The notes: generated from the letters alone by a model not told the origin. Shown: positions 6,969 to 64,000, numbered from the stretch's first letter. The stretch is 64,000 nucleotides of DNA from an uncultured Thermoanaerobaculia bacterium (GCA_964599475.1 CAZRFU010000016.1:17619-81618), one strand, 5' to 3'. A program made the numbers and translations.

Positions 6969-6973
6969 GGCCC

Positions 6974-9334: not shown

Positions 9335-9451
9335 CCGGAGCCGTCCCTCGACGTTCCCCGGTCCGGCGCCCCGCTGACGGCAGTCACCGAGACGCGTCTG
9401 GGAATGCCGCGCCCTGATACCGACCGCGCGGAGTCCTCTTCGAGCCGGGTG

Positions 9452-10057
9452 TCAGCCTGGGCGTGGTTCGAATCCGGTCAGCTCGAGATGCAACATCGCG
9501 CGAGCGGCCCGCCAGTCGCGCTTGACCGTCCGCAGCGAGACCGCTGTCGCATCGGCGATCTCCCCAAAGGTCAGCCCGCCGAAGAAGTGCCACTCGACCG
9601 TTTGGGCCAAGCGCGGGGCTGCGAGCTCCAGACGAGACAGGGCAGCATCCAGCGCCAAGAGATCTTCGATCGGGGCCGACGTGCCCGGCGCTGCGACGGC
9701 GATGGCGTCGAGGTCGATCTCAGGCTGACCACCACCACGTTTGCCTGCCTGGCGCCCGCGCGCGCGGTCGACCACCACGTGGCGCATCGCGCGCGAAGCC
9801 ACTGCGAACAGGTGTTGACGATCTTCGAATGGTAGCGCCCCTCGGCGCGACAGCCGCAGGAACACTTCGTGCACGAGCGAGGTGGCGGACGGCCCCGCAA
9901 CTTGGGCCCGCAGGTGGCGACCCGCCAAGGCCCGGAGGTCGGCGTAGATCAGATCGAACACCTTGCCTGCAGCATCGCGGTCGCCGCCGCGAGCGGCTGC
10001 CAGGAGCGCGGTCACGGCGCCCTGGTCGCCTTCGGGGGAATCGCCGGCCGCACCCAT
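9452..10057 (-). CDS. ECF-type sigma factor (second copy, same kinase-associated subgroup)
   Basis: C-terminal 201 aa of ORF 9452..11290(-): VHEVFLRL, LTFGEIADATAVSLRTVKRDWRAARAML; ATG at 10055-10057. The remainder of that ORF is antisense to the kinase gene. Confidence 0.75.
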   Translation of the reverse strand: MGAAGDSPEGDQGAVTALLAAARGGDRDAAGKVFDLIYADLRALAGRHLRAQVAGPSATSLVHEVFLRLSRRGALPFEDRQHLFAVASRAMRHVVVDRARGRQAGKRGGGQPEIDLDAIAVAAPGTSAPIEDLLALDAALSRLELAAPRLAQTVEWHFFGGLTFGEIADATAVSLRTVKRDWRAARAMLHLELTGFEPRPG

Positions 10058-10108
10058 TCCGAAGATTCTAGCGCCGCGTCCGACATCTCCTGTAGCGTTG
10101 CCGCACCG

Positions 10109-13072
10109 ATGGCCACCTCCCGGCAGGAAGAGCGAGCGCGCTGGTTCGTCGAGCTGTGCGACCTCGAGCTGCGGGAGCGTGACCGGGCTCTCGAGGAGAT
10201 CGCCGCGAGCGATCCCCAGCTGGCGGCCGAGGTCGAAAGGCTGCTCCGCCTCGATCGGCAATCGAACGGGCCGATCGAAGCCCTGCGCGAGGAACTTGGA
10301 CCGGCCCTGCACTCGGCGTTTTCCGAACTGGAGGTGGCAGACCTTGCGCCGCCGGAACGGCTCGGCCCGTGGCGCCTGGGCGAAAGACTCGGTGCGGGCG
10401 GCATGGGCGAGGTCTGGGCCGCCGAACGCGCCGATGCCGGCTTTGCCCAGCGCGCTGCCATCAAGCTGGTCCGCTCGAACATGGCGAGCGAGGAGGTGGT
10501 GCGCCGCTTCGCCATCGAACGCCGGGCTCTCGCACGGCTCGAACATCCCGGCATCGCCCGGCTGCTCGACGGCGGTGTCGCTCCCGATGGTCGCCCGTGG
10601 TTCGCCATGGAGCGGGTCGACGGCATCGCGATCACGACCTTCGCCGACACCAACGCACTCGACCTCGGGTCGCGATTGCGACTCTTCCTCGCCGTCATCG
10701 AGTCCGTCGCCTTTGCTCACCAGGCGCTGGTGGTCCATCGCGACCTCAAGCCCTCGAACATCCTGGTGACCGCGGCCGGCGCGCCCAAAGTCCTGGACTT
10801 CGGCCTGGCCAAGCTGCTCGACCCGGCGGAAGGCAACCAGGACCAGCCGGAGCTCACGCACACCAACCTGCTGGCGCTGACCCCGGCTTACGCCGCTCCA
10901 GAGCAATTCCTCGGCGAGCCGACCACCACCGCAACCGACGTCTACGCCCTGGGCGCGGTTCTGTTCGAGCTCCTCACCGGGCAATTGCCGCACCAGCGGC
11001 GAAGCCCTTCGCTCGCCGTGCTGCTCGAAGGGCTCGAGCGCGAGACCCTCGAGCGCCCTTCTCAGCGCCTCAGGCGTTCGGCTGCCAGCGAACGCCCGGA
11101 TCGAGCCGCCAGGCTGCTCGAGGGAGACATCGACACCATCGTGCTGCAGGCTCTCGCCCGCGAACCGGCCCGCCGCTACCCAACCGTGGCGGCGCTCGGC
11201 GCGGACATCCGCGCCCACCTCGAAGGGCGGCCGATCGCGGCACGGCCGGCCTCGGCCTTCTACCTCTTCTCCAAGTTCCTCGGGCGGCACCGAGCGGCGG
11301 CGATCGCTGCGCTGACCGTGGTGTCGGCCCTGAGCGTCAGCCTGATCGTCTCGTTGCAGCAGACTGCGGTCGCTCGCGCCGCCCTCGCCACGGCACAGAG
11401 CGAGGCCCGGCGCGCCGAGAGGGTCAAGGACTTCCTAGTGTCCGTGTTCGAACAGGCCGACCCAACCCACACCCAAGGAGCCGACGTGCCGGCGCGACAG
11501 ATCCTCGCCGAGGGCGCGGCCCAGCTGAGGACCAACCTCGCCGACGAGCCCGAGGTCCGCGCCGAGCTCTACGACACCGTCGCGCAGATCCAGACCAGCC
11601 TGGGATTGCTCGAAGAGGGGCTGGCCAACGCCGAAGCCGGCGCCGCAGAGCGCAAGCGGCAGTTCGGTGACAGCTCGCGCGAGTACGCCCGCAGCCGGGT
11701 GACGGTGGGCCGGGCCAAGCTGCAGCAGGCCCAGTTCGCTGGCGCGCTGGAGGACTTCGACCATGCCCTATCGGTGTTCGAAGCCAGGGTGGATACCCGC
11801 TCGCTCGACTTCGCGAAGGCACTCTCCGGTCGGGCCGAGGCCCGTCTGATGCTTGGCGACCCGGAGCAGGCGCGCACCGATCAGCTCGCCGCCAATGCGA
11901 TCTATGCCGCGGCCCTCGGGCCTGAGGATCGGGAAACCCTCGGCCAGCTCTCGAATCTCGCCGTGATCGAAACCCGGTCCGGAACCGTCCTCGAGGCCGC
12001 GCGGATCTTCCGCCAGGTGCTGGCCGGCCTCGAACGCGTCGAGCCCCCGGACTCGGCACGTGTGCTCGATGTCGTCCTCAATCTCGCCACCGCCCTCGAC
12101 ACCGCCGGCCAGAGCACAGAGGCCTTGGCGCTGTTCGAACGCGTCGTCGCCGGTCGCCGGAGGATCTACGGGGACCAACACCCCCTGCTTGCCGAAGCGC
12201 TGGTGATCGCCGGGCTCAGGATGTCGCGAGCCGGCCGTGGCGACGACGCACTTCGAGCGCTCGACGAGGCCCGCGCGATCTACGCACCGCTCGATCACCC
12301 GGAGCTCGGTACCGTCGACAACTTCAGCGGCCTGACCTACGCCGACCTGGGGCGGTTCGCCGAAGCCGAGGCGGCGTTCGCGGCAGCGTCGGCTCGGTTC
12401 TCACGGGACCTCGGCCCCGCGCACGTGATGACGGTTTCCGCCAACGCCAATCGGGCCAACGTGGTGAGTGAGCTCGGTCGCGAGGACGAGGCAGTCGAGC
12501 TGTTCGCCGAGGCGGTCGCCCAGCTGCGTGTGCTCCAGCAGCTCGACAACCCGAGGCTGTTGCGCATGCGACTGAACTGGGGAGCGGCGCTGCGCCGCGC
12601 CGGACGCTTTGCCGAAGCGCGGTCGGTGCTGGAAGCCGCGATGGCGGCCGCGCGCGAGCAGTTCGGAGGCGACCATCTGCGCATTGCCGAGGGCTCGGTC
12701 GAGCTCGCCCGCCTCGAGCTGGCTGCGAGAACGTCCACCGCTCCCGAGGTCGCTGCCTCACTGCTCGCCGAGGCGGAGCGGATCGCCGAGAACAACCCGC
12801 CCAACGCCGCCTTGGCCCGCAATCTGGCGGCAGCGAGGGCGGAACTGCGGGAGGCAAACGGTTCCTCGGCACCCATCACGGCCCCGACCACCCTGCCATC
12901 GACCCCGCTCGAACCCGTCCGAGAAGATCAGGCCATTGTCGAGGCTGGGGGACGGGCTCTACCATCTCCTGGCGTGCGGCGCGATCGAGGTGGAGATCAG
13001 CTCCGGCTCGGTGTCCGCGGTAGACGTCTTCGCCGACCGGCTGCGATTCGAGCTGCTGGATCTGCTGCGTGA
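10109..13072 (+). CDS. Ser/Thr protein kinase with TM helix and long extracytoplasmic TPR domain. The 3' end is uncertain: a G5 run at about 12945 separates it from a tag-encoding frame
   Basis: ATG 10109 (MATSRQEERARWFVELCDLELRER...); ELGAGGMGEVW, AIK, HRDLKPSNILV, DFG, APE; TM AAAIAALTVVSALSVSLIVSL; TPR repeats; divergent from sigma gene 9452..10057. Confidence 0.8.
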   Translation: MATSRQEERARWFVELCDLELRERDRALEEIAASDPQLAAEVERLLRLDRQSNGPIEALREELGPALHSAFSELEVADLAPPERLGPWRLGERLGAGGMGEVWAAERADAGFAQRAAIKLVRSNMASEEVVRRFAIERRALARLEHPGIARLLDGGVAPDGRPWFAMERVDGIAITTFADTNALDLGSRLRLFLAVIESVAFAHQALVVHRDLKPSNILVTAAGAPKVLDFGLAKLLDPAEGNQDQPELTHTNLLALTPAYAAPEQFLGEPTTTATDVYALGAVLFELLTGQLPHQRRSPSLAVLLEGLERETLERPSQRLRRSAASERPDRAARLLEGDIDTIVLQALAREPARRYPTVAALGADIRAHLEGRPIAARPASAFYLFSKFLGRHRAAAIAALTVVSALSVSLIVSLQQTAVARAALATAQSEARRAERVKDFLVSVFEQADPTHTQGADVPARQILAEGAAQLRTNLADEPEVRAELYDTVAQIQTSLGLLEEGLANAEAGAAERKRQFGDSSREYARSRVTVGRAKLQQAQFAGALEDFDHALSVFEARVDTRSLDFAKALSGRAEARLMLGDPEQARTDQLAANAIYAAALGPEDRETLGQLSNLAVIETRSGTVLEAARIFRQVLAGLERVEPPDSARVLDVVLNLATALDTAGQSTEALALFERVVAGRRRIYGDQHPLLAEALVIAGLRMSRAGRGDDALRALDEARAIYAPLDHPELGTVDNFSGLTYADLGRFAEAEAAFAAASARFSRDLGPAHVMTVSANANRANVVSELGREDEAVELFAEAVAQLRVLQQLDNPRLLRMRLNWGAALRRAGRFAEARSVLEAAMAAAREQFGGDHLRIAEGSVELARLELAARTSTAPEVAASLLAEAERIAENNPPNAALARNLAAARAELREANGSSAPITAPTTLPSTPLEPVREDQAIVEAGGRALPSPGVRRDRGGDQLRLGVRGRRLRRPAAIRAAGSAA

Positions 13073-13121
13073 CGGCTTCGAAAGTGGCGACACCAGCGCA
13101 TGGTCGCTCGCGGTGCCGTAG
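12930..13121 (+). other. orphan coding segment in the kinase +1 frame ending ...DVFADRLRFELLDLLRDGFESGDTSAWSLAVP* (fourth copy of the C-terminal tag)
   Basis: 18-nt identity (ttcgaaagtggcgacacc) with the tag-coding end of the 1628..3157 gene; reads cleanly only downstream of the G5 run. Confidence 0.45.
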
Positions 13122-13256
13122 CCGCGGCCATCCGGCCTGCGGGCTATCATCTGCTCGCGGTGACCGAGATGCCGAGCGCGGACTCGCCATTCGCAACGGT
13201 CGCGGCGCAGGCCGAGAGCAGAGAAGCCGACGAAGGCCCGGCGGGTTCAGCCGAGT

Positions 13257-13856
13257 TTGGGGTGCGGCTGGAGGATTCTCGTGGAAGAGTGGTGGTATTC
13301 ATGGATCGCACTGCCCGGGCTGATCTTCCTTGCCCGTACCACTGATGTCGGCCTGTCGACCCTGCGTATCCTGTTCATCGGCCAGGGCCGTCGCGGTCTG
13401 GCTGCCGCCACCGGGTTCTTCGAGGCGATCATCTGGCTGACGGTGGTGTCGCAGACCTTCAAGCACCTCGACAACCCGCTGGCGATCATCGCGTACGGCG
13501 GAGGCTTCGCCATGGGCAACGTCGTGGGGATGATGCTCGAAGGCAAGCTTCGACTGGGAGTCCAGGTCGCCCGGATCATCGGCGCCCGGGATCCGACGCT
13601 GTTGCAGGATTCGCTGAGGGCCCTCGACATCGGCTTCACCAGACTCGAGGGTCACGGCGCTCAGGGGCCCGTCTGGGTACTGTTTACGGTCGTGCGTCGG
13701 CGCGACGTGGCACGCCTGCTCGAGGCCGTCGAACGCGTCGCTCCCCAGGCCTTCGTGTCGATCGAGGACGTCCGACGGGTCGACCACGGTGTTTTCCCGC
13801 ACCCACCGATAGCGACCGAATGGCCGGGCTGGCGGCTGCTACGCAAGGCGCGCTGA
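13257..13856 (+). CDS. UPF0316/DUF2179-like small membrane protein (start uncertain)
   Basis: N-terminal TM segments followed by MLEGKLRLGVQVARIIG..FTRLEGHG, the general pattern of the YebE/DUF2179 family; recalled from memory, not searched. Confidence 0.45.
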   Translation: MGCGWRILVEEWWYSWIALPGLIFLARTTDVGLSTLRILFIGQGRRGLAAATGFFEAIIWLTVVSQTFKHLDNPLAIIAYGGGFAMGNVVGMMLEGKLRLGVQVARIIGARDPTLLQDSLRALDIGFTRLEGHGAQGPVWVLFTVVRRRDVARLLEAVERVAPQAFVSIEDVRRVDHGVFPHPPIATEWPGWRLLRKAR

Positions 13857-13901
13857 ACTTCCGTGCTATTATTTGAAGGAGTTTCTCGAAGGAGAGGTCC
13901 C

Positions 13902-14369
13902 ATGTCGAAGATGTTCAGCTGGAGTCTCCTGGTGCTGATCGCGTCCGCCGCGAGCGCCGGCACCTTCACCGTGACCCTGCACAACGGCAACAGCTTCGAG
14001 AGCCGCTACCAGCCCAAGGCTGCCAGCTGGGATGACAACGTCATCCTGGTGCTCGACGAGCTCGGCAACTGGGTTGGGCTCGAGCGCGCCGACGTCAAGT
14101 CGGTGATCTCCGACATCGAGGCTCGCGGCTACGGCATCGTCATCGACACGACGACCAAGGAGTTCGGCTTCGCCCCGAACGACGCCGCGCTCCCCGACGA
14201 AGAAGGTGGCGCACAGCCGCAGCAGGCGCCGTCGGCCCTCGACCGCATCCTCGGGCAGACCTACGACACGCCGCAGTTCGTCGAGCCCGGCTCGAGTGGT
14301 GGCGGGTTCCCGGTCTTCAGCGTCGGAACCAGCGGCAGCGCGGCCACTCAGCCGCAGGGCCCTCGCTGA
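13902..14369 (+). CDS. hypothetical secreted protein
   Basis: ATG 13902 after GAAGGAGAGG; signal peptide MSKMFSWSLLVLIASAASAGT; low-complexity C-terminus. Confidence 0.55.
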   Translation: MSKMFSWSLLVLIASAASAGTFTVTLHNGNSFESRYQPKAASWDDNVILVLDELGNWVGLERADVKSVISDIEARGYGIVIDTTTKEFGFAPNDAALPDEEGGAQPQQAPSALDRILGQTYDTPQFVEPGSSGGGFPVFSVGTSGSAATQPQGPR

Positions 14370-14378
14370 TCTCGGGCC

Positions 14379-15131
14379 GTGGCGCGGCTGATCCGTGACG
14401 GCGGCGGCTACGCCGTCCTCGAACGCGGCGCCGCGCTGCGCTTGAAGAGCAATCCCTTCGAGGTTCCGCGGCACGCCTGGGAGCTGGGCTCCCCCTGCGA
14501 GCCCGGCACGGCGCAGGTACCGGTGCACCCACGGACGGTCTTGGGCATCGGTCGCAGCTACCGCGCCCACGCCGAAGAGCTCGGCAACCAGGCTCCCGAG
14601 TCTCCGCTACTCTTCCTCAAGGCACCGAGCTCGCTGCTCGACCCCGGTGCCCCGCTTGCGATCCCCACCAGCTGCGGCCGGATCGACTTCGAGGGTGAGA
14701 TCGCGCTGGTGCTGGCATCGCGGCTGGATCGAGTACCAGCAGACGAGACCCTGTCGAAGGTGCTCGGAGTCACCGCTGCGTGCGACACCACCGCGCGCGA
14801 GATCCAGCAGGGTGACCGCACCTTCGCCCGTGGCAAGTCGCTGGTCTCGAGTTGCCCGATCGGCCCGGTGATCGATCTCGATCCCGACTGGGGAAACCTC
14901 GAGGTCGTCACGCGGATCAACGGCGTCGAGCGTCAGCGTGGACACGAGCGGATGTTGCTGTGGCCGATCGCGGAGATTCTCGCCTACGTGTCGAACTGGA
15001 TCGTGCTCGAAGCCGGGGACGTGATCCTCCTCGGCACCCCTGCAGGCGTTGCGCCCTTGAGCCCCGGCGACCGGTTGGAGGTCGAGGTCAGCGGCGTCGG
15101 GGTGTTGCACAACCCTGTCGTAGCGCGCTGA
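14379..15131 (+). CDS. fumarylacetoacetate hydrolase (FAH) family protein
   Basis: GTG start; FAH-fold motifs (LLFLKAPSSL, RIDFEGEIALVL, GDVILLGTPAGV). Confidence 0.8.
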   Translation: MARLIRDGGGYAVLERGAALRLKSNPFEVPRHAWELGSPCEPGTAQVPVHPRTVLGIGRSYRAHAEELGNQAPESPLLFLKAPSSLLDPGAPLAIPTSCGRIDFEGEIALVLASRLDRVPADETLSKVLGVTAACDTTAREIQQGDRTFARGKSLVSSCPIGPVIDLDPDWGNLEVVTRINGVERQRGHERMLLWPIAEILAYVSNWIVLEAGDVILLGTPAGVAPLSPGDRLEVEVSGVGVLHNPVVAR

Positions 15132-15592
15132 TGGGGCCTCGGCGTCTCAGGCAGGTCATCGCCCTGATCGTGGCGCTGGCTGCCGCGGTGATCGGCCTCG
15201 AGGGCCGCGGATACCCCTGGTCACTGGCCGCGATCTTGGGTGCTGCCTGCGGAGCGTTCGTCTGGGTCTTGCTCGAGCGGATCGGCGAGATCGCGGCGAT
15301 GTTCGGCGATCACCACCCGCCACGGGAAGACGAGGACCGCCGCCAACAGCGCGAGATGGATCCACCCGCCGAAGACCATTCCGGCGCCGAGGGATACCAA
15401 CCAGGTCGAGAACAAGCCGAAGGTGAGGGCCAGCCGCAAGAGCTCGGGGCGCATGATGCACAGTCTAACCCCGAGGAGCCACTTCGCCGTGCGACGCTGG
15501 ATACTGACACCCCCGAGGTGCTGTTCGACCACCCGCTGATGCGAGCCGAACGGCGTCGGCTGCCGGCACCGGACGAGGAGCAGCACCGCTGA
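15131..15592 (+). CDS. small membrane protein (2 TM) with acidic low-complexity tail
   Basis: ATG overlaps the FAH stop (TGATG) and its own stop overlaps the crcB ATG (TGATG), forming a translationally coupled chain. An alternative minus-strand ORF 15221..15586 was judged less likely. Confidence 0.45.
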   Translation: MGPRRLRQVIALIVALAAAVIGLEGRGYPWSLAAILGAACGAFVWVLLERIGEIAAMFGDHHPPREDEDRRQQREMDPPAEDHSGAEGYQPGREQAEGEGQPQELGAHDAQSNPEEPLRRATLDTDTPEVLFDHPLMRAERRRLPAPDEEQHR

Positions 15593-54491: not shown

Positions 54492-54574
54492 CCGGCGACT
54501 TTAGCAGGTGCCCTGTATTGCTCCGCCTGGCCCCACCAACCGCCGCCACACCAGGCGTCCGACGAAGGAGCGGA

Positions 54575-57500
54575 TCACACCCACTCGGCGCACAGCAGTT
54601 CCGCCTGGGCCAGCACCGTCTTGACCGCTTGGTCCTGGAGATCCGGCGGGTAGCCCCAACGATTGAGGATGCGTTTGACCATCACCCGCATGCGTGCGCG
54701 GGCGCTTTCGCGGACGGTCCAGTCGATGGTGGCGCTCTTCCTCACCTGGGTGATCAGCTCGGCGGCGATCGCGCGCAACTTCTCGTCACCCATCGCCTGC
54801 ACCGCGCTGTCGTTGGTGGCGAGCGCGTCGTAGAAGGCGATCTCGTCGTCGCTGAGACCGAGCGCTTCGCCGCGTTTCCCGGCGGCTTCGAGGTCCTTGG
54901 CGAGCTTGATCAGCTCTTCGATGACTTCCATCGTCGAGATCGCGCGGTTGTGGTACTTGTTCAGCGTTTCCTTGAGCTTTTCGCTGAAGACCTGGCTCTC
55001 GACCAAGTTGCGCTTGCCGCGCACCTTGAGCTCGTCTTCGAGCAGCTTGCGCAGGAGCTCGGCGGCGACGTTCTTGTGCTGCAGGCCGCGGACCTCGGCG
55101 AGGAACTGGTCGCTCAAGATCGAGATGTCGGGTTTCTGCAGACCGGCGGCGGTGAACACGTCGATCACTTGGCCGTCGGTGGTGATCGCCTTGCTCACCA
55201 ACTGGCGGATCGCCGCGTCGATCTGTTCGGGGGTCTTGCCGCTCCCTGAGCCACCCTTGGCGAAGGCCGCTTGCAGCGCCTGGAAGAACGACACGTCGTC
55301 GCGGATCGTCGTCGCCTCGTCGGTTGCCGCCGCGAGCGCGAAGGCACGCGAGAGCTCCATCACCACCCTGGCCCACCGTTGTTGACCGTCCGGCTGCGCC
55401 AGGATGTGCTCGCGGCCGGCGGGAATCAACGCGAGGCGTTCGCTCGGCGAGCCGCTGATCCAGCGGCTCCAATCGAAGCCGTTCAGCATCGAGCAGGCGA
55501 CCTCGTGCTTCTCGAGCATCACCGCAATCGCGGCAGCCGTGTCGAAGGTCGGATCACCCTTGCCGCCGCTTTCGGTGTAGGTCGCCAGTGCCCGTTTGAG
55601 CTGATCCGCGAGCCCGAGGTAGTCGACCACCAGGCCGCCGGGCTTGTCGCGAAACACCCGATTCACTCGTGCGATCGCCTGCATCAGGCCGTGGCCGTGC
55701 ATCGGCTTGTCGACGTACATGGTGTGCAGACACGGCGCATCGAAGCCGGTCAGCCACATGTCGCGCACGATCACGATGCGGAAGGGATCTTTGGCGTCTT
55801 TGAAGCGCGTCGCCATCCGCCGCCGACGGTCTTTGCTGCGGATGTGCGGTTGCCACGCAGGGCCGTCGTCGGCGCTGCCGGTCATCACCACCTTGACCAC
55901 ACAGCTGCGGTCCTTTTCGGCCTCGGCATCGTCGCCGACACTCGCCCATTCGGGGCGAAGCGCGATCAGCGCGTCGTAGAGGTCGACGCAGATGCGCCGG
56001 CTCATGCACACCACCATCGCCTTGCCGTCCATCGCCTCGAGGCGCTTCTCGAAGTGCGCCACCAAGTCCGCCGCGATCAACGCGATGCGTTTCGGGTCGC
56101 CGACCAAGGCTTCGAGCGCCGCCCACTTGCTCTTGAGCTTCTCGCGGTGGGTCGGCTCTTCGCCCTCGGTGATCTCGTCAAACTCGTCGTCGAGCTTGGG
56201 GACCTCGGCGGCGTTGAGGCTGAGCTTCGAGATCCGGCTTTCGTAGTAGATCGGCACCGTCGCCTGATCCGCCACCGCTCGCTGGATGTCGTAGATCGAG
56301 ATGTAGTCGCCGAACACCACCCGCGTGTTGGCGTCGGCGAGCTCGATCGGGGTGCCGGTGAAGCCGATGTAGCAGGCGTTCGGCAGCGCGTCGCGCAGGT
56401 TGCTCGCAAAGCCGTACGACAACGCGCCGGTCTTGGGGTTGACCTTGGCGCCGAAGCCGTATTGGCTGCGGTGTGCTTCATCGGCGATCACCACGATGTT
56501 CTGCCGCGCACTCAGCACCGGCATGGCTTCGCCCTGCTCCGGCAGGAACTTGTGAATGGTGGTGAAGACCACGCCGCCGCTCGCGACCGTCAGGAGCTCG
56601 CGCAGCTGCTCACGGCTGCCGGCCTGCACCGGCGTCTGCCCGAGCACGTCGGCGCAGCGCTGGAACTGGCCGAAGAGCTGGTCGTCGAGGTCGTTGCGGT
56701 CGGTCAACACCACCAGCGTCGGGTTCTGCATCACCGGGTGGCGTACCACTCGTGCGGCGAAGAAGAGCATCGAAAAGCTCTTGCCGCTGCCCTGGGTGTG
56801 CCACACCACCCCGGCGCGGCGGTCGCCCGGCTGGCCGCCGCGCATCCGCCCGGCCCAATAGGTGCCCGGCGTTTCCTTCGCCTCGTCGGCTCGCGCCAAC
56901 CCACTCGCCCGCACCGTCTCCTCGACCGCGGCGTTGACCGCGTGGAACTGGTGGTAGCCGGCGATGATCTTGTGCAGCGCCCCCGAGTCCGGATCCTCCT
57001 CGAACACGATGAAGTGCTGCAGCAGCTCGAGGAAACGCCGCTGGTCGAACACTCCGCGGATCAACACCTCGAGCTCGAGCGCATTCGCCGGCGCGTCGCC
57101 CTCGCCGTCGACCGTGCGCCAGACCTTGAACCACTCCTGGTTCGCCGTGAGCGACCCCATCCGCGCCTGCAGTCCGTCACTCACCACCAACACCGCGTTG
57201 TACTGCAACAGCGACGGAATTTCGGCCTTGTAGGTCTGCACCTGCGCGTAGGCGCTCCAGATCGTCGCGTTTTCATCCGCCGCGTTCTTGAGCTCGATCA
57301 CGCCGAGCGGCAGCCCGTTGACGAACACCACCAGATCCGGCCGGCGGCTGTGCTGGCCCTCGATCACCGTGAACTGGTTCACCACCAGCCAGTCGTTGGC
57401 GGCGGAATCGGTGAAGTCGACCAGCCGCACGTGGTCGCCGGCGATCGACCCGTCCAGGCGGCGGTATTCCACCTGCACCCCGTTGCGCAGCAGCTTGTGG

Positions 57501-57763
57501 AAGGCACGGTTGGTCTGGATCAGCGACGGCGTGGCGATCCGCACCACCCGGCGCAGGGCATCCTCGCGAGCGTCCGCAGGGATCGTTGGGTTGAGCCGCG
57601 CAATAGCGTCCCGCAGCCGGCCGGCGAGCAAGACGTCGCCAAACGAATCCCTCTCCGCCGCCGGTTCGCCCGGCGCCAGGTGTGGCCCGTGGCCGACGGC
57701 GTAGCCGAGACCAGCAAACCAGTCGAGGGCGGCGGATTCGACGATGGATTCGTCGAGACTCAT
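54575..57763 (-). CDS. hsdR: Type I restriction enzyme R subunit (intact)
   Basis: 1062 aa; N-terminus [21 protein letters not shown]; SF2 helicase motifs (GSGKS, DEAH). Confidence 0.9.
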
Positions 57764-57766
57764 CGG

Positions 57767-58219
57767 CTAGTCCCACACATACCGCTCGTCGAACTCGATG
57801 CCATACTTCTTCAGGAGGCGGCGGTACTCCTCTTGGAACGAGATCTTGCGATGATGCTGCGCCTGGCCGGCGAGGTATTTCTCGAGAGCAGCGCGATGGG
57901 AAGGACTGAGCGAAAACGCTCCGTAGCCGCTCTGCCAGTGAAAGTCCTGCGAGCCTGGGGCCTTGGATTTGAGCCACTTCGTCGATCCGGTCTTGATGAC
58001 CTGCACCAGGTCGGCCAGCGCCACCGTTCTCGGGTGCGCGACGAGGAGGTGGATGTGGTCCGCCACCGATCCCGCCGCCAGCAGCGTGCCCTGGTGGTTC
58101 AGGATGATGCCGCCGATGTAAGCGTGGAGCTCGTCGCGGATGTCGTCAGCCAGGCGCGGTTCGCGGTTCTTGGTCGAAAAGACCAAATGGACGAGGATCT
58201 GCGCGAGGGACTGTGGCAT
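57767..58219 (-). CDS. IS200/IS605-family Y1 (HUH) transposase, REP-associated (RAYT-like)
   Basis: MPQSLAQILVHLVFSTKNREP...HIHLLV...SGYGAFS (HuH and Tyr motifs); flanked by REP palindromes; stop lies 3 nt from the hsdR start. Confidence 0.75.
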   Translation of the reverse strand: MPQSLAQILVHLVFSTKNREPRLADDIRDELHAYIGGIILNHQGTLLAAGSVADHIHLLVAHPRTVALADLVQVIKTGSTKWLKSKAPGSQDFHWQSGYGAFSLSPSHRAALEKYLAGQAQHHRKISFQEEYRRLLKKYGIEFDERYVWD

Positions 58220-58289
58220 GGCAAGCAAGCGCTCCGGCGTTTTCGGCCGAGTCTATCCGTCCCGACGGGCGCGGGTCCGCAAGTTGGCG

Positions 58290-58800
58290 ATGGTCGCGCT
58301 CCGGGGCCCCAACGGGGCCCAATGAGATAGCCCAGGGCAACGCCCTGGGTAGGCAAGCCCCCGTCCCTTCCCAAGCCCTGAAAGGGCGAAACATCCCTCC
58401 GCGACGATCCTGCGCCGCAACCGCCCCGGAGTTCCGCCCTTTCAGGGCTCGGAACCAATGGGGGGTGCCGCGGTACCCAGGGTGTCGCTTCGCTCTACCC
58501 TGGGCTATCTCATCTCGCCCCTTTGGGGCTTCGGATCGGCAGCCCGGCACCGGCGGGGCACCAGTGGATCGCCCCAACGACCGGCCCGCGATGCAGCACC
58601 CCGCCGTCGGGTCCCCGTGGCCCCAACCGGCACAGGTGGATCGCCCCAACGCCCGCCAGTGGCACGGCACCGCACGGATGCTCGGCTCCGGGGCCCCAAC
58701 GGGGCCCAATGAGATAGCCCAGGGCAACGCCCTGGGTTGGGCAAGCCGGTCCCATTCCCGAGCCCTGAAAGGGCGAAACATCCCAGGCCGACCCGGGTCC
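58290..58800. repeat. REP/BIME-like palindromic repeat cluster (about 4 units in both orientations, core CCCAGGG-loop-CCCTGGG hairpin within ...aatgagatagcccagggcaacgccctgggt...gccctgaaagggcgaaacatccc)
   Basis: Near-identical copies at 58296, 58683 and 60285; inverted copies at 58425 and 60420. Confidence 0.75.
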
Positions 58801-58832
58801 ACCGTCCGCGCGCGATCCACCGGCCCCACGGC

Positions 58833-60125
58833 CTACCCCGGATACGCCGTGGCCAACGCCCGCAAACCCAAAAAGCACACGCCGACGCCACCAACCGCCG
58901 CCACGCCGATCGCCGCCCTTGCATGGCGCCGCAACAAGCCCCATCGGCTCGCCCCGCCAACCGCCAAGGCACACGCCGGGCCGATGGCGGGTAAGACCAG
59001 CCGCCCCTGGGGCTGCCAATCCGAGCTGACCATGTACACCGCCAGCAGCACCAGCGCCGCCCCGATCCCGGACACCGCGGCGATCGCGACCACACCACGC
59101 TCCCGCCACGTGGCCCACACCCCGCCGACGATCGCCGCAGTCGGCAGCAGGAACCATGCGTAGGCGGCCACCGGCAAGTGAACGTTGAACCACCCGAGCT
59201 TGGCCCAGGTGCCGAGCCACAGGGTGACCATCCACCCCGGCTCGGTGATCAACGCGACCGCGGGCCCACCGTGCAACTTCCAGCTCGGCGGGACCGCATG
59301 CCCGAATGGGATGCCACGTGTCGCCTGAAACGCCAGAAGCCCCGCCAGCAGCGAGCTCCACAGTCCAACTCCCGCAGCGGCGACGCTGCGGCGCATCCGG
59401 GCGACACCGATCACCACCAGCGGCGCGAACAAGAAGGCCGCGGTCAATTTGGCCCACAGCGCCACTCCCGCGACGACGGCGGCAAGCAAGTACAGGCGAG
59501 TCGACCGGGTTTCCCCCGCACGCAAGAGCAGGGCAAAGCACACGGTCGAGAGGGCGATGGTGGCGGCGTCGTTGCTGAAGGTAGCGAACGAAAACACCAA
59601 CTGGGGCACCAGCAGGAACACCAGGAACACCGGCACCACCTCGACCGGCCTCCGGCCGGCCTGCCTCGACACCACTGCACACCCCCACAGCGCCGGCACG
59701 AACACCACCGCCCAGGCGACGTTCACCAACCGGGGCGCCCACCACCCCCGCCGGGGTTCCCCGTCGACATAGGGTTTGGGTGGCTGACTGAAATCGAAAT
59801 CCGCCGATCGGCGCAATGCCGGCAGCTCCGAATCCCCTCCCGCCACGCGGAGCGCCGCCGCCGCAGCGAGATAGGCAAGCGGCGGTTGGTGCAGCTCGTA
59901 GCTCACCTCGCCGGGTAGGGCAGGGACAACCGGCCCGCTCCCGGCGCGCGCCACCTCGCGCACGTATTCGAGATGCGCCGCCTCGTCCGGAGCTTCGCCG
60001 AGCGGCGTGACCCATGAATACGCCAGCGCCAGCACGACGAACGCAACACCGCCGAACGTTGCGAGCACTCGGAGTGGGCGCTCCGAGCTGGTGGTGGGTC
60101 TGGCGTCCGCTTGGTTCGGGGCCAT
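58833..60125 (-). CDS. polytopic membrane protein, GT-C-fold glycosyltransferase-like (ArnT/PMT/DUF2142-like, first-loop PDEAAH motif)
   Basis: 430 aa, about 10 TM, acidic motif after TM1; sits between the two REP clusters. Confidence 0.5.
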   Translation of the reverse strand: MAPNQADARPTTSSERPLRVLATFGGVAFVVLALAYSWVTPLGEAPDEAAHLEYVREVARAGSGPVVPALPGEVSYELHQPPLAYLAAAAALRVAGGDSELPALRRSADFDFSQPPKPYVDGEPRRGWWAPRLVNVAWAVVFVPALWGCAVVSRQAGRRPVEVVPVFLVFLLVPQLVFSFATFSNDAATIALSTVCFALLLRAGETRSTRLYLLAAVVAGVALWAKLTAAFLFAPLVVIGVARMRRSVAAAGVGLWSSLLAGLLAFQATRGIPFGHAVPPSWKLHGGPAVALITEPGWMVTLWLGTWAKLGWFNVHLPVAAYAWFLLPTAAIVGGVWATWRERGVVAIAAVSGIGAALVLLAVYMVSSDWQPQGRLVLPAIGPACALAVGGASRWGLLRRHARAAIGVAAVGGVGVCFLGLRALATAYPG

Positions 60126-60269
60126 GGTCGCGGGTTGCCTTTATGCAGCCAAGTGGTTTGTCGCCAGAAACATACATTGGCCTCCGGGTGGCAGGCTGCG
60201 CTACCGCCTAAACAAGCTCACTCAGGCCTTGCGTCGCTCGTGCAGGTCTTTGACGCCTTGTTGGAGGGC

Positions 60270-60512
60270 AGGCTCGGCACCGCACGGATGCTCGGCTCCG
60301 TGGCCCCAACGGGGCCCAATGAGATAGCCCAGGGCAACGCCCTGGGTGTCGGGCAAGCCCACCGACTCCCCGAGCCCTGAAAGGGCGAAACCTCCCGCGA
60401 CGGTTCGCCCCGCCCCCTCGGAATTCCGCCCGTTCAGGGCTCCGGACCTCCAGGGGTGCCGCTGTACCCAGGGTGTCGCTTCGCTCTACCCTGGGCTGTC
60501 TCATCTCGTGAG
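60270..60512. repeat. REP/BIME-like repeat cluster (one forward and one inverted unit) abutting the hsdR duplication junction at 60512/60513
   Basis: Same units as 58290..58800. Confidence 0.75.
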
Positions 60513-60514
60513 CT

Positions 60515-60903
60515 GGGTTCACCACCAACCAGTCGTTGGCGGCGGGATTGGTGAAGTCGACCAGCCGCACGTGGTCGCCGGCGATCGACCCGTCCGGCCG
60601 GCGGTATTCCACCTCCACGCCGTTGCGCAGCAGCTTGTGGAAGGCACGGTTGGTCTGGATCAGCGACGGCGTACCGATCCGCACCACTCGGCGCAGGGCA
60701 TCCTCGCGAGCGTCCGCAGGGATCGTTGGGTTGAGCCGCGCAATAGCGTCCCGCAGCCGGCCGACGAGCAACACCTCGCTGAACGAATCGCGCTCCGCCT
60801 CCGGTTCGCCGGGGGCGAGGTGAGGCCCGTGGGCGACGGCGTAGCCGAGACCGGCAAACCAGTCGAGGGCGGCGGATTCGACGATGGATTCGTTCAAGCT
60901 CAT
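60515..60903 (-). pseudogene. hsdR 5' fragment (first ~130 codons), a direct duplicate of 57374..57763; reads through into REP sequence
   Basis: Translation [26 protein letters not shown]...DWLVVN then diverges; nucleotide-level near identity with the intact hsdR 5' end. Confidence 0.8.
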
Positions 60904-62786
60904 TCGGCGGTTGACGTCTGGATGGGGCCGATCATCGTGGCTACCTGACCAACACCCTCGTCCGCCACGGCAGGAACGGCTGCTGGTGGCTCCGCGGCAA
61001 AGAACTTCTCCACCTCCTTGACTAGAGGTGCAAACCCGACAAAGGCATCATTCAGCGCCTGGCCGGAGAGCCCGCACACGTACCTTGCTAGCTTCCCTTT
61101 CGCGAAGGGCTTGAGTTGTCTAGTCAACAGCAAGAGTTCGTCCTTGCTAGCGTTCTTCGACCGACAGTAGTTCTCGAACGTGTCATCAAGTGCGGTGAAC
61201 TTGTTCAAGGCAACGGCTTCGGATCGCTCGATGAGCCACCCTTTCTGCTCGGCGTACCTCCAGACCTCGATGGGGAAGAGTTCTTCCAACGCTATCGGCA
61301 GCAGGAGGCCTTTTCTTGCTATTGCCACCAGAGCATGGGGCTTGTACGCCCCGAGGAGCAAGGCCTTGATTCTATGCCTTCCATTTTCGCGGAGGAACGC
61401 TTGATTCGAACTCTTGACACGGTCGTTGTTCACCACCGCGCTTTTTGCCTCGCGGCCCGCATCATCGTCGTCGAATAAGCCTAGTGCAAGATGCGAAGTT
61501 CGGCTGTGTGCCCAAGAAATGAGCATGTCCTTAACCCAGGGGGCTCCGGCCTGGTCTTCGCTTCGTACAGTCGCCCGTTCCAGGACAGTGGGGGCCAACA
61601 GCTCCAGGGCCCTCGTGAAGACCCGAGCATCGGATGTACCTTCGACGAAGAGAGCAGGGCTAGCGATGTGGTTGGTCCTTTGAAGGATCGCGAGCGCTCG
61701 CTCCCGACTCTCGACGGCCTCGGCAATCATCGGGGCAACGACCGGCATGAGGCCGACGTGTTCGTCAAGTTCATGCATCTCGTTTGAGGCCAGCGTTTTG
61801 ACCTGAGTGGCACCGTCCTCGCCACTGCCAGAGACGAGGAAGGGAGTCACTGTAGGTGAGGATCTGGCCAGCGAATAGAAAGCTGGCGAGTGCGTGGTAG
61901 CGAAAATCTGGATCTCCTTGCTGTAGGCGACGCACTCGCTCGCAAGTTCGGCCGCCTTGAGCATTTCAAGATTGTTCTCAGGCTCCTCGAAGCCCCAAAT
62001 CGTCTGGACCTGCGGACTACCCTTGACTCGCCGTGTTCGCGACTGCTGGGCTAGGTAGTGCAGGAGGATCGGAATGTGGCGCGCCTTGACTCCGTCGCCC
62101 CGGAGGCCCAGCGGCACTCCGAGCGGGCCGTCCGATTGGAACTCAAGCCGCGAGAACAGCTCGCGAAGGTCGGCGGGTAGCTGGATCGTGCTCTTGATGC
62201 CAAGCTTGGCTTCGATCTCAGCAAGGGCGGCCTGCGTCTTCTCGTTGATGGTGGAGGTGAAGCCGCCAGAAGCCGCGCGAATGTCCGCGGCGACCGTGCC
62301 GACGAGGACATCGTGAAGGCCCCGAAGTAGTGTCTGGAAGTAGTCGCTGCCTTTCACGGCAGGTACGTACTCGAACCGCACGGAGTTGAGGAATGCCGGA
62401 ACCTTTGATCGCGGCTTGAGTTGGCTCCCGTCGAGGTGTCGAAGCTCGTTTCCAGGCTCATGGTGCCCGCCAGAACGCCACACCTTTCGCCAGAGGATCT
62501 CGGACGCGTCGTAGGAGGGGGGGAGCCTCATAGTTAGAGTTACACGAACCTCTTTGGCCTTGTTCGACGGGGTCCTCGCGTGTTTGCTGAAGTCGCGGTC
62601 AAACACGAAGGGGCTCGCGGCGGCAGTGCCGTTGAAGAACAAGTCGAGGGCACGAAGGATGTTCGATTTGCCGACATCGTTCAGGCCTACGAATAGATTG
62701 AGCCGGTTGGTCCGGAAGTCCTCGTTGAGGATGGAGCGGTAGTTCTGAATCCGGACAGACGTGATCTGCATTCCGTCGACCGCCAT
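60900..62786 (-). CDS. OLD-family ABC-ATPase + TOPRIM nuclease (OLD/PARIS-like), about 628 aa
   Basis: Start ATG 62786 after GAGGAG; N-terminus QITSVRIQNYRSI...VGLNDVGKSNILRALDLFF (AAA_15/OLD Walker A); ATTHSP; TOPRIM-like VEGTSDARVF and FDDDDAG; ATGA overlap with the hsdR fragment. Confidence 0.75.
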   Translation of the reverse strand: MAVDGMQITSVRIQNYRSILNEDFRTNRLNLFVGLNDVGKSNILRALDLFFNGTAAASPFVFDRDFSKHARTPSNKAKEVRVTLTMRLPPSYDASEILWRKVWRSGGHHEPGNELRHLDGSQLKPRSKVPAFLNSVRFEYVPAVKGSDYFQTLLRGLHDVLVGTVAADIRAASGGFTSTINEKTQAALAEIEAKLGIKSTIQLPADLRELFSRLEFQSDGPLGVPLGLRGDGVKARHIPILLHYLAQQSRTRRVKGSPQVQTIWGFEEPENNLEMLKAAELASECVAYSKEIQIFATTHSPAFYSLARSSPTVTPFLVSGSGEDGATQVKTLASNEMHELDEHVGLMPVVAPMIAEAVESRERALAILQRTNHIASPALFVEGTSDARVFTRALELLAPTVLERATVRSEDQAGAPWVKDMLISWAHSRTSHLALGLFDDDDAGREAKSAVVNNDRVKSSNQAFLRENGRHRIKALLLGAYKPHALVAIARKGLLLPIALEELFPIEVWRYAEQKGWLIERSEAVALNKFTALDDTFENYCRSKNASKDELLLLTRQLKPFAKGKLARYVCGLSGQALNDAFVGFAPLVKEVEKFFAAEPPAAVPAVADEGVGQVATMIGPIQTSTAE

Positions 62787-62791
62787 TCTGG

Positions 62792-64000
62792 TTACTCCTC
62801 GAAGAAGGCTCTTCCACCAAGTAGTTCTGGCAACAAGGCTTCGCGCTGTCCGGCGAGAAGGTGACCTTCGGCCGCACGGCTCTCTGCCATGGCCAACAGG
62901 GGGCTTACCCTGTCGGTGAATGCGTGGGCCAAAGCGGTCGGTGGAATCAGGCACGGCAGGGCGAAGGCATCTTCGGGCCTAACGCGCTGATGGCTCCCCG
63001 TCGTGCCAGTCACGAGTGAGGCATAGGCGGTTGAGAACGGTTGGCTTGTGAAGAGCGAATAGAGAAACTCACTCGAAGCGCTAGTGGCTGGCTCGACCAC
63101 GATGAATTCGGTCGAGCAGACGGACGGGCGAGAACCGTGGAGCTTGGCAGGGAACCACACGCGAGGGATGTGAGGGTTGAGCTTGGACAACAGCACGGCG
63201 CCTTGGGGAACCGCGAACTTGTTGCTTCGGATGGCTGCCCCAAGCTCTACCTTCGGTTTCCGGCCATCGTCGAAGGCAGGGAGGCTGTAGTGGTCGAACT
63301 GCTCGCCCGGGCACAGGCCTGGGTTCAACGAGGCCTTTCCAACGGTCGCCAACTCGGAAAGGGGGCCGGTTCTCCACCCGCGTGGAATCCGCCCGAGGTC
63401 GGAGTCTTGGAAGGAGTCGGGGAAGAGGGCGGCGGTTTCGGGGTCGAGGCCGGGGGGGTGGCGGCCGTCGAGTTTGGCGCGGACGGGGTCGAAGTCGACG
63501 AACCAGCTCTGGAAGAGCGCCCGCGCCATGGCCTCGAGGGTGGCGTTCATGCGGCGGTTGAGCTCGATCTTGTCGTCGAGGGCGCCGAGGGTCTCCGCGA
63601 TCAGCCTCTGATGACCGATGGGCGGCACAGTGATCTTTAGTCGGCGTTGGTCGGTAAGGCTCAGGTAGGGGGCCATGTCCGTTGAGGCCTTCATCCCGGA
63701 GAGCTGCTCGCTGAACTCGCGCCCGCAGGCCCAGTAGCGCAGGAACCCGCTGTCCAGACGATCAAGGTCGCGACTTCGCCAGTAGCTCAGGTGGGGCGAA
63801 TAGACGAAGGGAGGCATTCGTGGAGTAACGAACGAGGTTCGACCAGTGCTGTTGCCTTTCGTCGTGATGATCGTGTCGCCGACGCGGGACATCTTCGGTC
63901 GCACCTTTTCGAAGAGGTGCTCGTGGAAATGCTCAACCCCAGAGAAGTCGATGTGGCTGTCAGTGACGTGGCCGGCACGAAGGAAGATTGGACCGTTGCC
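62792..64000 (-). CDS. hsdS: Type I R-M specificity subunit HsdS, 5'-partial (continues beyond window end)
   Basis: Central conserved region LTDQRRLKITVPPIGHQRLIAETLGALDDKIELNRRMNATLEAMARALFQSWFVDFDPV; frame stays open upstream of 63904 to position 64000. Confidence 0.8.
   Translation of the reverse strand, partial: GNGPIFLRAGHVTDSHIDFSGVEHFHEHLFEKVRPKMSRVGDTIITTKGNSTGRTSFVTPRMPPFVYSPHLSYWRSRDLDRLDSGFLRYWACGREFSEQLSGMKASTDMAPYLSLTDQRRLKITVPPIGHQRLIAETLGALDDKIELNRRMNATLEAMARALFQSWFVDFDPVRAKLDGRHPPGLDPETAALFPDSFQDSDLGRIPRGWRTGPLSELATVGKASLNPGLCPGEQFDHYSLPAFDDGRKPKVELGAAIRSNKFAVPQGAVLLSKLNPHIPRVWFPAKLHGSRPSVCSTEFIVVEPATSASSEFLYSLFTSQPFSTAYASLVTGTTGSHQRVRPEDAFALPCLIPPTALAHAFTDRVSPLLAMAESRAAEGHLLAGQREALLPELLGGRAFFEE

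Follow-up and report, generated by a model that had tools for sequence, protein, structure and literature searches.

Type I restriction-modification (R-M) operons can carry embedded genes, of which the PrrC/Rlo genes are known examples. Transposases of the IS200/IS605 type excise and insert without target duplication, and REPs are known join-points of duplications. Shyamala et al. in 1990 and de Vries & Wackernagel in 2002 are said to have described REP join-points in rearrangements and homology-facilitated illegitimate recombination. The closest described systems are the RAYT/REPINs (Nunvar 2010, PMC2817692; Bertels & Rainey 2011, PMC3116915; Bertels 2017, PMC5581495), which the locus analyzed here resembles in its ~150-aa Y1/HUH transposase and in its hairpin repeats, found as singlets, as inverted doublets and, in some genomes, scattered over many loci; the transposase gene of homologues from other phyla is likewise bracketed by inverted units. 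The locus also resembles type I R-M operons with embedded genes, such as TgvAB of Vibrio cholerae VPI-2 (PMC11411939) and the PADLOC 'HEC' candidates, because an ATPase gene of the OLD/AriA class is embedded between hsdS and hsdR. The Rfam motif Acido-Lenti-1 (RF01687) has been described as probably a small RNA, with no known function (Weinberg 2010, PMC2864571). In the window analyzed here, a 64-kb stretch of DNA, the first 390 nt of hsdR occur twice, and the repeat looks like a leftover hsdR start after two operon versions were spliced at a hairpin-repeat array.

Organization of the type I R-M locus

All genes of the locus lie on the minus strand (Table 1). The type I R-M assignment followed from hsdR, which matched TIGR00348 and five Pfam domains in total, and from hsdS, which matched Methylase_S; hsdM lies beyond the window end and is present in a related locus, L001, with the layout hsdM, hsdS, seven REP doublets, transposase gene, hsdR. 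As the first-pass annotation had described, ~3.14 kb containing REPs, a membrane-protein gene, a transposase gene and a second hsdR start parts an hsdR 5' fragment from the complete hsdR. The two couplings that it had reported were also found: the OLD-like stop and the start of the truncated hsdR (60903) overlap as ATGA, and the stop of the transposase gene lies 3 nt before the ATG of the intact hsdR. The claim that hsdR had been split by a cassette was not borne out, since a full 1062-aa gene, with 97% amino acid identity to P0001/L001, is present.

The central conserved region of hsdS (63374-63601) was 94% identical to L001 6422-6649 by BLAST, and the target-recognition domains differed. The GC content was 60-67% for hsdS and 55-62% for the OLD-like gene; taken together, the two genes were placed at 55-62%, compared with 65-72% in the surroundings. 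The true start of the OLD-like gene is probably ~55-60 codons inside the listed ORF. Its Pfam matches were limited to residues 62-145, and the protein matched the PADLOC models AriA, HEC-01A, Old and GajA; the C-terminal 335 aa gave no Toprim or other Pfam match at E<=1. Support for the earlier label "OLD-like" thus comes from the N-terminal ABC-type ATPase region; in the C-terminal half, no domain was detected.

Table 1. Features of the R-M locus, in window coordinates
Feature	Position	Strand	Support
hsdR(A), complete, 1062 aa	54575..57763	-	TIGR00348 570 bits; HSDR_N, SWI2_SNF2, T1R_D3-like, T1RH-like_C domains
Y1 (HUH) transposase gene, 150 aa	57767..58219	-	Pfam Y1_Tnp 76 bits
REP doublet A	58297..58538	.	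two inverted units, REPIN-like; sub-threshold Rfam RF01687 core matches
REP singlet	58685..58784	.	repeat reaches left to 58667
430-aa polytopic membrane protein gene	58833..60125	-	Pfam DUF2142 42.5 bits, cut-off 30.1
REP doublet B	60295..60508	.	unit beside scar lacks hairpin 1, internally truncated; 2-nt (CG) microhomology at join
hsdR 5' scar (allele B)	60507..60903	-	codons 1-130 plus 6 nt past a 1-nt insertion; BLAST end 60507
OLD-like ATPase gene (OLD/AriA/GajA class), embedded in R-M operon	60900..62954	-	AAA_15, AAA_21, AAA_23
hsdS (specificity subunit)	62792..63904	-	Pfam Methylase_S

Sequence divergence of the two hsdR 5' copies

The direct repeat comprises copy A (57374-57763), which is the first 390 nt of the complete hsdR, and copy B (60514-60903), within the scar. 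The copies align without gaps over 390 nt, and their homology runs on for 6 nt, to 60507, if one 1-nt insertion is allowed. The scar stops short of the PD...ELK nuclease motif and covers HSDR_N profile positions 2-116 of 198. The repeat had been annotated as a near-identical duplication; the repeat itself was confirmed, but its identity was only 92.3% (30 substitutions), with 15 synonymous and 13 non-synonymous differences. The dN/dS between A and B was 0.29, compared with 0.17-0.26 when full-length alleles were paired across this 390-nt segment, and the scar carried 5 private substitutions, compared with 10, 9 and 20 in the full-length alleles. Copy B was nearest to the allele of another related locus, L205 (26 differences, compared with 30 to copy A). 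All six AL|BG informative sites fell within nt 81-132, indicating that the alleles are mosaic and that B is not a decayed copy of A. No divergence step marking a crossover at nt 390 was found in hsdR against L001 and L205, and the first 200 nt were the more divergent stretch in every pair. Judged by these substitution patterns, copies A and B are diverged alleles of hsdR, with differences like those between functional alleles, not decay products.

These data bear on the alternative that the hsdR 5' end was duplicated in place, by unequal exchange or replication slippage at the REPs, and then diverged for a long time. Such an origin would fit the role of REPs as duplication join-points, and when L001 was the only other allele compared, A and B were mutually nearest (26 L001-private sites compared with 15 and 11). 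However, when the fourth allele, L205, was included, it proved a nearer relative of B than A is. Relaxed constraint and many private changes would be expected of a dead copy, whereas B has the fewest, and dN/dS is 0.29; the start of the duplicate would also have had to coincide precisely with the ATG and fall in the ATGA overlap with the OLD-like stop. We give this alternative a slight chance.

REP units and the join at the scar

Five REP units of ~100 nt, with three hairpins apiece, were found, all of them confined to the R-M locus and none elsewhere in the 64-kb window; in some other genomes the cognate motif occurs at many loci. Across 207 REP units from many genomes, hairpin 1 formed the conserved outer end. 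Because hairpin 1 is missing from the unit beside the scar, this unit is cut ~13-15 nt inside, and the join is not exactly at a REP edge, as had been annotated. No conserved insertion target was found outside hairpin 1 across the 207 units. The join of allele B to a REP was seen only in this window; hsdR 5' sequences next to REPs occur in several genomes (the window, L193, L096 and L145).

By sequence match, the REP core (hairpins 1 and 2) is the Rfam Acido-Lenti-1 motif. The window copies scored 24.7-27 bits, below the gathering threshold of 37 bits, which homologous units passed in L157 (62.7), L146 (53.1), L156 (38-41.7) and L001 (38.9). A promoter and terminator scan of 57300-61000, uninformative on the whole, gave no sigma-70-like promoter and terminator-like sites at chance level. 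Two ORF calls are an annotation point in themselves: the 231-aa ORF at 60208-60903 is a pseudogene reading through a REP, and in L001 a called ORF of 314 aa is contained wholly in a REP array.

The Y1 transposase gene and its junction with hsdR

The HUH (HIH) and Y..Q..HH motifs of the Y1/HUH domain that marks RAYTs are intact in the translated transposase. The protein scored 57.1 bits against the IS200 model NF033573, marginally above its cut-off of 55, and 20.4 bits against the RAYT model NCBIfam NF047646, below its cut-off of 80. The JGI label "RayT" on its homologues is a COG-level name. Amino acid identity was 95% to L001 and 93% to L205. In both of these loci, REP, transposase gene, 3 nt and hsdR ATG are contiguous, with 93-94% nucleotide identity to the window, and both are without the duplication, the OLD-like gene and the hsdR fragment. 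The linkage of transposase and hsdR thus predates the duplication or is independent of it. hsdR may plausibly be expressed together with the transposase gene; the 3-nt spacing is kept in three loci.

The transposase gene has no REP between its stop and hsdR, within the 3-nt gap, and is therefore not flanked on both sides like a RAYT gene; on its other side, the nearest REP is 78 nt off and in the wrong orientation, with hairpin 1 proximal. In homologous loci of other phyla (L209, L117, L156 and L219), the gene is bracketed by inverted REPs within 7-10 nt. A complete IS200/IS605 element would have left and right hairpin ends and several near-identical copies, whereas the window, L001 and L205 all lack the right end and the 64 kb contain only one copy. 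From its flanks, the transposase gene as it stands is judged not to be a bounded element. One Pirellula MAG contained at least two copies of the gene (L145, L148), and a plasmid collection gave only one distant, unannotated match (44% identity).

In at least three phyla, members of this transposase family lie within type I R-M operons (4/4 blind look-ups), and the link between this specific Y1 transposase/REP family and type I R-M is strong in Acidobacteriota, Verrucomicrobiota and Planctomycetota. No published account of such a link was found in the literature on RAYTs and restriction-modification, embedded genes and Acido-Lenti-1. The whole R-M operon as a REP-bounded transposon was considered and rejected: L001 does carry REPs outside hsdM and hsdR, but L209/L219 have them only around the transposase gene.

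hsdR scars beside embedded genes in other loci

Scars starting exactly at the hsdR ATG, beside embedded genes, were also found in unrelated loci. L003, the locus of the closest OLD-like homologue, has the order hsdS, OLD-like, scar, SLFN/AlbA_2 gene, scar, hsdR, with no REP at either scar, and L193 has the order scar, REP, RhuM-like gene, ATGA, hsdR. The break positions in hsdR differ among the cases (codons ~132, ~80, ~84 and ~20), and the embedded positions of related loci are taken up by RhuM, SLFN/AlbA_2, TIR and toxin-antitoxin genes. A limited literature search turned up no account of hsdR 5' scars left next to embedded genes, nor of a Y1 transposase that recurs as an embedded gene.

A transposase-mediated origin, close to the idea of the first-pass annotation, would have the Y1 enzyme cut a REP and a surrogate end in hsdR and move REP...Tnp-hsdR(1-396) as single-stranded DNA into the equivalent site of another hsdR; the REP-unit position concerned, if the enzyme cut and joined at the junction, is AGATGAGA. 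The segment contains an intact Y1 transposase gene, REPs adjoin hsdR 5' sequences in the four loci named above, and insertion without target duplication is what IS200/IS605-type enzymes do. However, the REP at the join has lost the conserved outer hairpin and hence offers no natural end, the hsdR breakpoints vary, the 207 units show no conserved target motif outside hairpin 1, the transposase gene has lost its flanking units, and the L003 scars are without any REP. We consider this origin highly improbable, with barely a slight chance.

The membrane-protein gene and support for the assembly

The membrane protein matched DUF2142 above the cut-off, whereas its PMT_2 match (21 bits) was below the cut-off of 26.1; of the earlier description as a GT-C-like membrane protein, the membrane-protein part is thus supported by a profile, and the GT-C likeness is weak. 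In an independent contig, L083, the gene and both flanking REPs are conserved with 93.7% identity (homologue, 91% amino acid identity), and its 58%-identical relatives are ordinary chromosomal genes in housekeeping contexts. For these reasons, the membrane gene is not evidently cargo. The proposal of a cargo-carrying RAYT/REP insertion is disfavored by this conservation elsewhere, together with the older shared junction, the missing element ends, the internally cut REP and the allelic nature of the copies.

L001 covers 58737-54577 of the window and L083 covers 60352-58685. These supporting contigs overlap by 53 nt, all of it inside a REP, and the assembly may therefore have taken a wrong path through the REPs. 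The contig appears to be metagenome-derived, and assembly through the REPs could have linked a disrupted locus (hsdS, OLD-like, hsdR'-REP) with a distinct REP-Tnp-hsdR locus, either from the same strain or from one that co-occurs with it. The REP units share runs of ~50 nt, related contigs (L083, L205-L208) end at these REPs, and related strains co-occur in public samples. On the other hand, the 7.7% difference between the copies argues against a repeat that was collapsed or duplicated in assembly; no k-mer is shared at the B-REP join, which must therefore exist in reads; nearly all other joins are backed independently by L001 and L083; and analogous scars occur in independent assemblies. A chimera is considered very unlikely.

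A putative recombinant of two R-M variants

We favor, at about even confidence, the reading that the locus arose by recombination between two variants of a single, horizontally exchanged type I R-M family. One variant would have carried a REP array, (the membrane gene), a REP, the Y1 transposase gene and hsdR(A), a block also present in L001 and L205; the other would have carried hsdS, the embedded OLD-like gene and hsdR(B), with the OLD-like stop overlapping the hsdR start. Part of one variant would have been replaced by DNA of the other through one homologous exchange, within conserved hsd sequence, and one illegitimate exchange, a 2-nt microhomology join of hsdR(B) nt ~396 to the interior of a REP unit. 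Such an event would be a case of homology-facilitated illegitimate recombination in which the hairpin-rich REP array served as the join-point. It may have left a new hsdS and OLD-like module upstream, a dead hsdR(B) 5' scar still translationally coupled to the OLD-like gene, and a resident intact hsdR(A) probably co-transcribed with the transposase gene. The anatomy, the sharing of the junction, the truncated REP, the allele relations and the recurrence of scars are observed; mechanism and direction are inferred, with hsdS, OLD-like and hsdR(B)' as the favored incoming DNA and the REP/transposase/hsdR(A) block as resident. The lower GC content of hsdS and the OLD-like gene, and the lack of any OLD-like homologue above 61% identity, also speak for this reading.

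No relative with contiguous hsdS, OLD-like and hsdR(B) was found, so that no parent of the left half was observed, and the empty site that the first-pass annotation proposed to look for did not appear; the closest OLD-like homologues in the metagenome search were only 58-61% identical. The Y1 transposase may conceivably have had a part in making the join. A tblastx comparison of the L001 and L205 flanks with the window gave only noise.

A Campbell-type integration was also weighed, in which a 3.14-kb circle (REP', membrane gene, REPs, transposase gene, hsdR nt 1-396) that had left an L205-like or L001-like locus through an illegitimate REP/hsdR join integrated by a single homologous crossover into a resident OLD-hsdR locus, at its 5' end; recombination between the repeats would then be able to undo the structure. 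A single crossover yields just such a topology, in which the shared segment is directly repeated on either side of the insert. The insert starts at a broken REP, and its other end reads Tnp, 3 nt, hsdR ATG, like L001 and L205; copies A and B are identical over stretches of 75, 53 and 46 nt, which would allow RecA pairing. However, reciprocal chimeras with a switch point would be expected, whereas private and shared sites are interleaved with no clear switch; neither circle nor empty site was observed, and an extra, earlier excision is required. We regard this integration as distinctly unlikely. For the window itself, recombination between R-M variants, an ordinary process with the scar still fresh, is the most likely account.

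Comparison with known systems

The locus departs from RAYT/REPIN systems in several respects. Its units are ~100 nt long with three hairpins, compared with 20-40 nt; its protein fails the NCBI RAYT model and barely passes the IS200 model; its repeats are confined to the R-M locus; and its transposase gene has lost the flanking units. RAYT groups 2 and 3 typically descend vertically, whereas the 72-82% identity of the present transposase family across phyla suggests horizontal spread. With IS200/IS605 elements, the locus shares a single Y1 transposase gene, subterminal hairpins and the lack of inverted terminal repeats and target duplications, and its doublets resemble transposase-less, MITE-like derivatives; unlike these elements, it shows no evident multiple identical copies and no right end, and only 3 nt part it from the host-type gene to which it is fused. 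The single homologous anchor and the single microhomology join, placed in a hairpin repeat, are like REP rearrangement and homology-facilitated illegitimate recombination, although here the event is read from anatomy only, with the parent molecules not observed.

A broader view, which we consider unlikely, is that the Y1 transposase and Acido-Lenti-1-type repeats, rather than inserting casually, are a co-transferred part of a cross-phylum type I R-M family, in which hairpin arrays, and possibly the enzyme, serve as swap sites for hsdS and embedded-defence modules. If so, the hsdR 5' scars would be a record of successive acquisitions, and an R-M-associated, partly domesticated RAYT would act as a device for module exchange or expression control.

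hsdR 5' scars next to embedded genes would in any case allow the ordering of defence-gene additions to type I R-M operons. Unlike the small RNA that has been described, Acido-Lenti-1 behaves here as a DNA repeat flanking transposase genes, and it appears to be the terminal hairpin module of a Y1 transposase/REP element.

Comparison of the Two hsdR Copies

The 390-nt direct repeat (57374-57763 and 60514-60903) reported by the first-pass annotation is real, but its copies, described there as near identical, differ by 30 substitutions without gaps (92.3% identity). When one inserted base is allowed, the homology runs 6 nt further, to 60507. Every gene of the region lies on the minus strand, and the copies are the 5' end of the complete hsdR (A) and an hsdR 5' fragment beside an OLD-like gene (B). 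Integration of a 3.14-kb circle by a single crossover would leave such a repeat, although we consider it unlikely.

The first 390 nt of hsdR were compared in A, B, and two related loci, the JGI contig L001 and the Logan contig L205. Differences were fewest between B and L205 (26), followed by A and B (30), A and L205 (36), B and L001 (41), and A and L001 (45). Private changes numbered 5 in B, 10 in A, 9 in L205, and 20 in L001, and the six sites uniting B with L205 all fell in nt 81-132. The dN/dS was 0.29 for A versus B and 0.17-0.26 for full-length allele pairs over the same stretch. Duplication in place followed by divergence would also give two copies; however, B shows the opposite of the relaxed constraint and excess private changes of a long-dead local duplicate, and we regard this origin as very improbable. 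B most plausibly represents the start left when a second, formerly functional allele of this gene family was truncated not long ago.

The first ~200 nt of hsdR were ~15% divergent in every pair, compared with ~5% in the remaining gene (window 57374-57763, L001, and L205), with dN of 0.05-0.07 versus 0.012. This divergent 5' end could stem from relaxed constraint or from foreign 5' ends having been imported more than once.

Features of the window and of related loci
Locus	Feature	Position	Strand	Remark
Window	hsdS	63904-62792	minus	
Window	ATPase gene, OLD/AriA/GajA class (OLD-like)	62954-60900	minus	
Window	hsdR 5' fragment (B)	60903-60507	minus	ATG overlaps OLD-like stop (ATGA)
Window	231-aa ORF	60208-60903		130 HsdR codons, then REP doublet read through
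Window	REP doublet	60508-60295		
Window	DUF2142 membrane-protein gene	60125-58833	minus	430 aa
Window	REP singlet	58784-58685		
Window	27-nt direct repeat	58557-58583, 58629-58655		89% identical, 72 nt apart
Window	REP doublet	58538-58297		
Window	Y1 transposase gene	58219-57767	minus	150 aa
Window	complete hsdR	57763-54575	minus	1062 aa; begins 3 nt past transposase stop
Window	RF01687-like REP cores	58297-58350, 58498-58538, 58685-58737, 60295-60347		
Window	end of hsdR homology	54492-54577		
L001	end of hsdR homology	13187-13263		
L205	end of hsdR homology	1304-1400		
L001	seven tandem REP doublets	7244-9466		period ~320 nt
L001	314-aa gene call	8005-8949		wholly inside REP array
L205	reduced hsdR	589-1307		nt 1-629 plus last 88 nt
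L001	RF01687 REP core	7244-7298		
L146	RF01687 REP core	7888-7934		
L156	RF01687 REP core	3829-4926		
L157	RF01687 REP core	216-261		
L003	extra hsdR 5' fragments	2603-2830, 4337-4500		from ATG
L096	extra hsdR 5' fragment	2192-2428		from ATG; in-frame stop
L145	extra hsdR 5' fragment	5826-5940		from ATG; REP unit meets hsdR at ~codon 20
L193	extra hsdR 5' fragment	~146-590	reverse	from ATG
L117	transposase in R-M locus			
L145	transposase in R-M locus	4544-6650		
L156	transposase in R-M locus	1808-7857		
L209	transposase in R-M locus	2326-12453		
L219	transposase in R-M locus	6110-15337		
L220	transposase in R-M locus	3881-13056		
L223	transposase in R-M locus	621-7656		

The REP Units and the Join

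Each REP unit comprises ~100 nt with three short G+C-rich hairpins, and a doublet consists of two inverted units with hairpin 1 on the outer side. In an alignment of 207 units from many genomes, conservation began at hairpin 1, which covaries (GCCCC/GGGGC with GCCGC/GCGGC), and no conserved sequence was found outside it. The unit abutting the hsdR fragment lacks hairpin 1. The join therefore lies ~13-15 nt within the unit and not, as first proposed, exactly at its edge, and the partners share only CG there. All five REP units of the 64-kb window fall within this locus. That these repeats led the assembly along a wrong path is quite improbable.

The 231-aa ORF formed across the join, which stops short of the PD...ELK nuclease motif, is to be regarded as a pseudogene. 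The 27-nt repeat lies in the stretch that separates the REP singlet from the neighboring doublet. For the OLD-like protein, a Pfam search with its C-terminal 335 residues matched no family.

Related Loci and Origin of the Arrangement

L001, whose hsdR protein is 97% identical to that of the window, has the order hsdM, hsdS, seven tandem REP doublets (together 2.2 kb, occupying the hsdS-transposase gap), transposase gene, and hsdR. The 3-nt spacing is as in the window, and the OLD-like gene, hsdR fragment, and membrane gene are absent. The gene call inside its REP array is probably spurious, and a REP remnant lies 12 nt beyond its hsdR stop. L205 has the order REP, transposase gene, 3 nt, reduced hsdR (internal deletion of ~2.5 kb), and LeuS-like gene. 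The transposase-hsdR junction is thus common to loci free of the duplication. L083, from the same study as L205, carries the membrane gene flanked by REPs on both sides (93.7% identity), and this segment, too, predates the window. Relatives of the membrane gene at 58% identity are ordinary chromosomal genes beside dapF, hslUV, and xerC. The window, L001, and L205 are homologous exactly up to the hsdR stop codon and no further, and the downstream genes all differ (C25/PorU-like peptidase, GyrB-like, and LeuS-like, respectively), indicating that the restriction-modification (R-M) block occupies different contexts or genomes.

A cargo-carrying transposon that split hsdR, as originally interpreted, is not supported, because the transposase-hsdR junction exists in duplication-free loci and the join lies inside a REP unit; the earlier observation is nevertheless borne out in part, since the direct repeat stands, and its interpretation likewise has partial support. 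A one-ended move catalyzed by the transposase is the least probable of the alternatives, although cleavage by the enzyme next to AGATGAGA would restore support to a transposase-mediated model. The mechanism and direction that we infer, with about an even chance of being correct, are that homologous exchange at one side spliced together two variants of a single type I R-M family. At the other side, a microhomology join would have linked nt ~396 of hsdR(B) with a point inside a REP unit. The favored incoming piece is hsdS, the OLD-like gene, and the hsdR(B) fragment, because the REP/transposase/hsdR block occurs in three loci and the OLD-like gene in only one of these, the window, because GC content over 60800-63200, which takes in the OLD-like gene and some of hsdS, is 55-62% versus 65-72% in neighboring genes, and because L003, where the closest homologue of the OLD-like gene lies, has the same layout.

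hsdR Fragments in Other Loci

L003 has the order hsdS, OLD-like gene, hsdR scar from the ATG, SLFN/AlbA_2 gene, second scar, and hsdR. L193, whose hsdR belongs to another family, has the order scar, REP, RhuM-like gene, ATGA, and hsdR. In unrelated loci, such extra 5' fragments adjoin embedded genes (OLD-like, SLFN/AlbA_2, or RhuM-like) or REPs.

The Transposase and Its Association with Type I R-M

The transposase has a Y1_Tnp domain with intact motifs; it narrowly passes the NCBI IS200 model and fails the NCBI RAYT model. There are ~4,500 close homologues, 72-82% identical across phyla. In a scan of species-representative genomes, the REP core matched at least 117 loci, and the matches listed included Planctomycetota, Verrucomicrobiota, Acidobacteriota, Polyangiaceae, Xanthomonadales-type Gammaproteobacteria, and Chloroflexota. 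In these genomes, two inverted units bracket the transposase gene, 7-10 nt from its start and stop, so that the doublets resemble derivatives without a transposase, comparable to those of REPIN/RAYT or IS/MITE pairs. The transposase gene of the window lineage has lost both ends of its own.

The REP core (hairpins 1 and 2) scored above the gathering threshold of Rfam RF01687 (Acido-Lenti-1) in L157, L146, L156, and L001 and below it in the window. In the published description (PMC2864571), Acido-Lenti-1 is a probable small RNA with no known function. Since the motif flanks Y1 transposase genes, the RNA candidate probably represents the terminal hairpin module of a mobile element.

Four transposase homologues, picked only by size or number of contig, were looked up blind, and all four turned out to be within type I R-M operons and to share the strand of the hsd genes (hsdM, ..., Tnp, hsdS, TIR, DUF3800, RhuM, hsdR; hsdM, Tnp, hsdS, SLFN, hsdR in Haloferula; hsdM, two toxin-antitoxin pairs, Tnp, hsdS, RhuM, hsdR; and Tnp, hsdS, SLFN, hsdR). 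By a rough estimate, not a computed one, the chance of a random gene lying inside such an operon is well under 1%. Among the REP-scan matches listed, 11 loci had the transposase gene: three more were in type I R-M loci (L117, L145, and L156), one was beside an Eco57I-type methylase gene, and the others were elsewhere. Homologues 66-82% identical occur in type I R-M operons of several phyla, in the orientation of the hsd genes. Possible reasons for the link are joint transfer with the R-M family, operon targeting, or a functional role.

Taken alone, the window most likely holds a rather ordinary scar of recombination. The recurrent hsdR scars, the Y1 transposase family linked to type I R-M in several phyla, and Acido-Lenti-1 acting as a REP point beyond it. 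The repeat/transposase pair resembles RAYT/REPIN systems, but two membership tests were negative in the window. In gene content, the window is similar to known R-M operons with embedded defense genes, and the event has parallels in REP-associated rearrangement and homology-facilitated illegitimate recombination.
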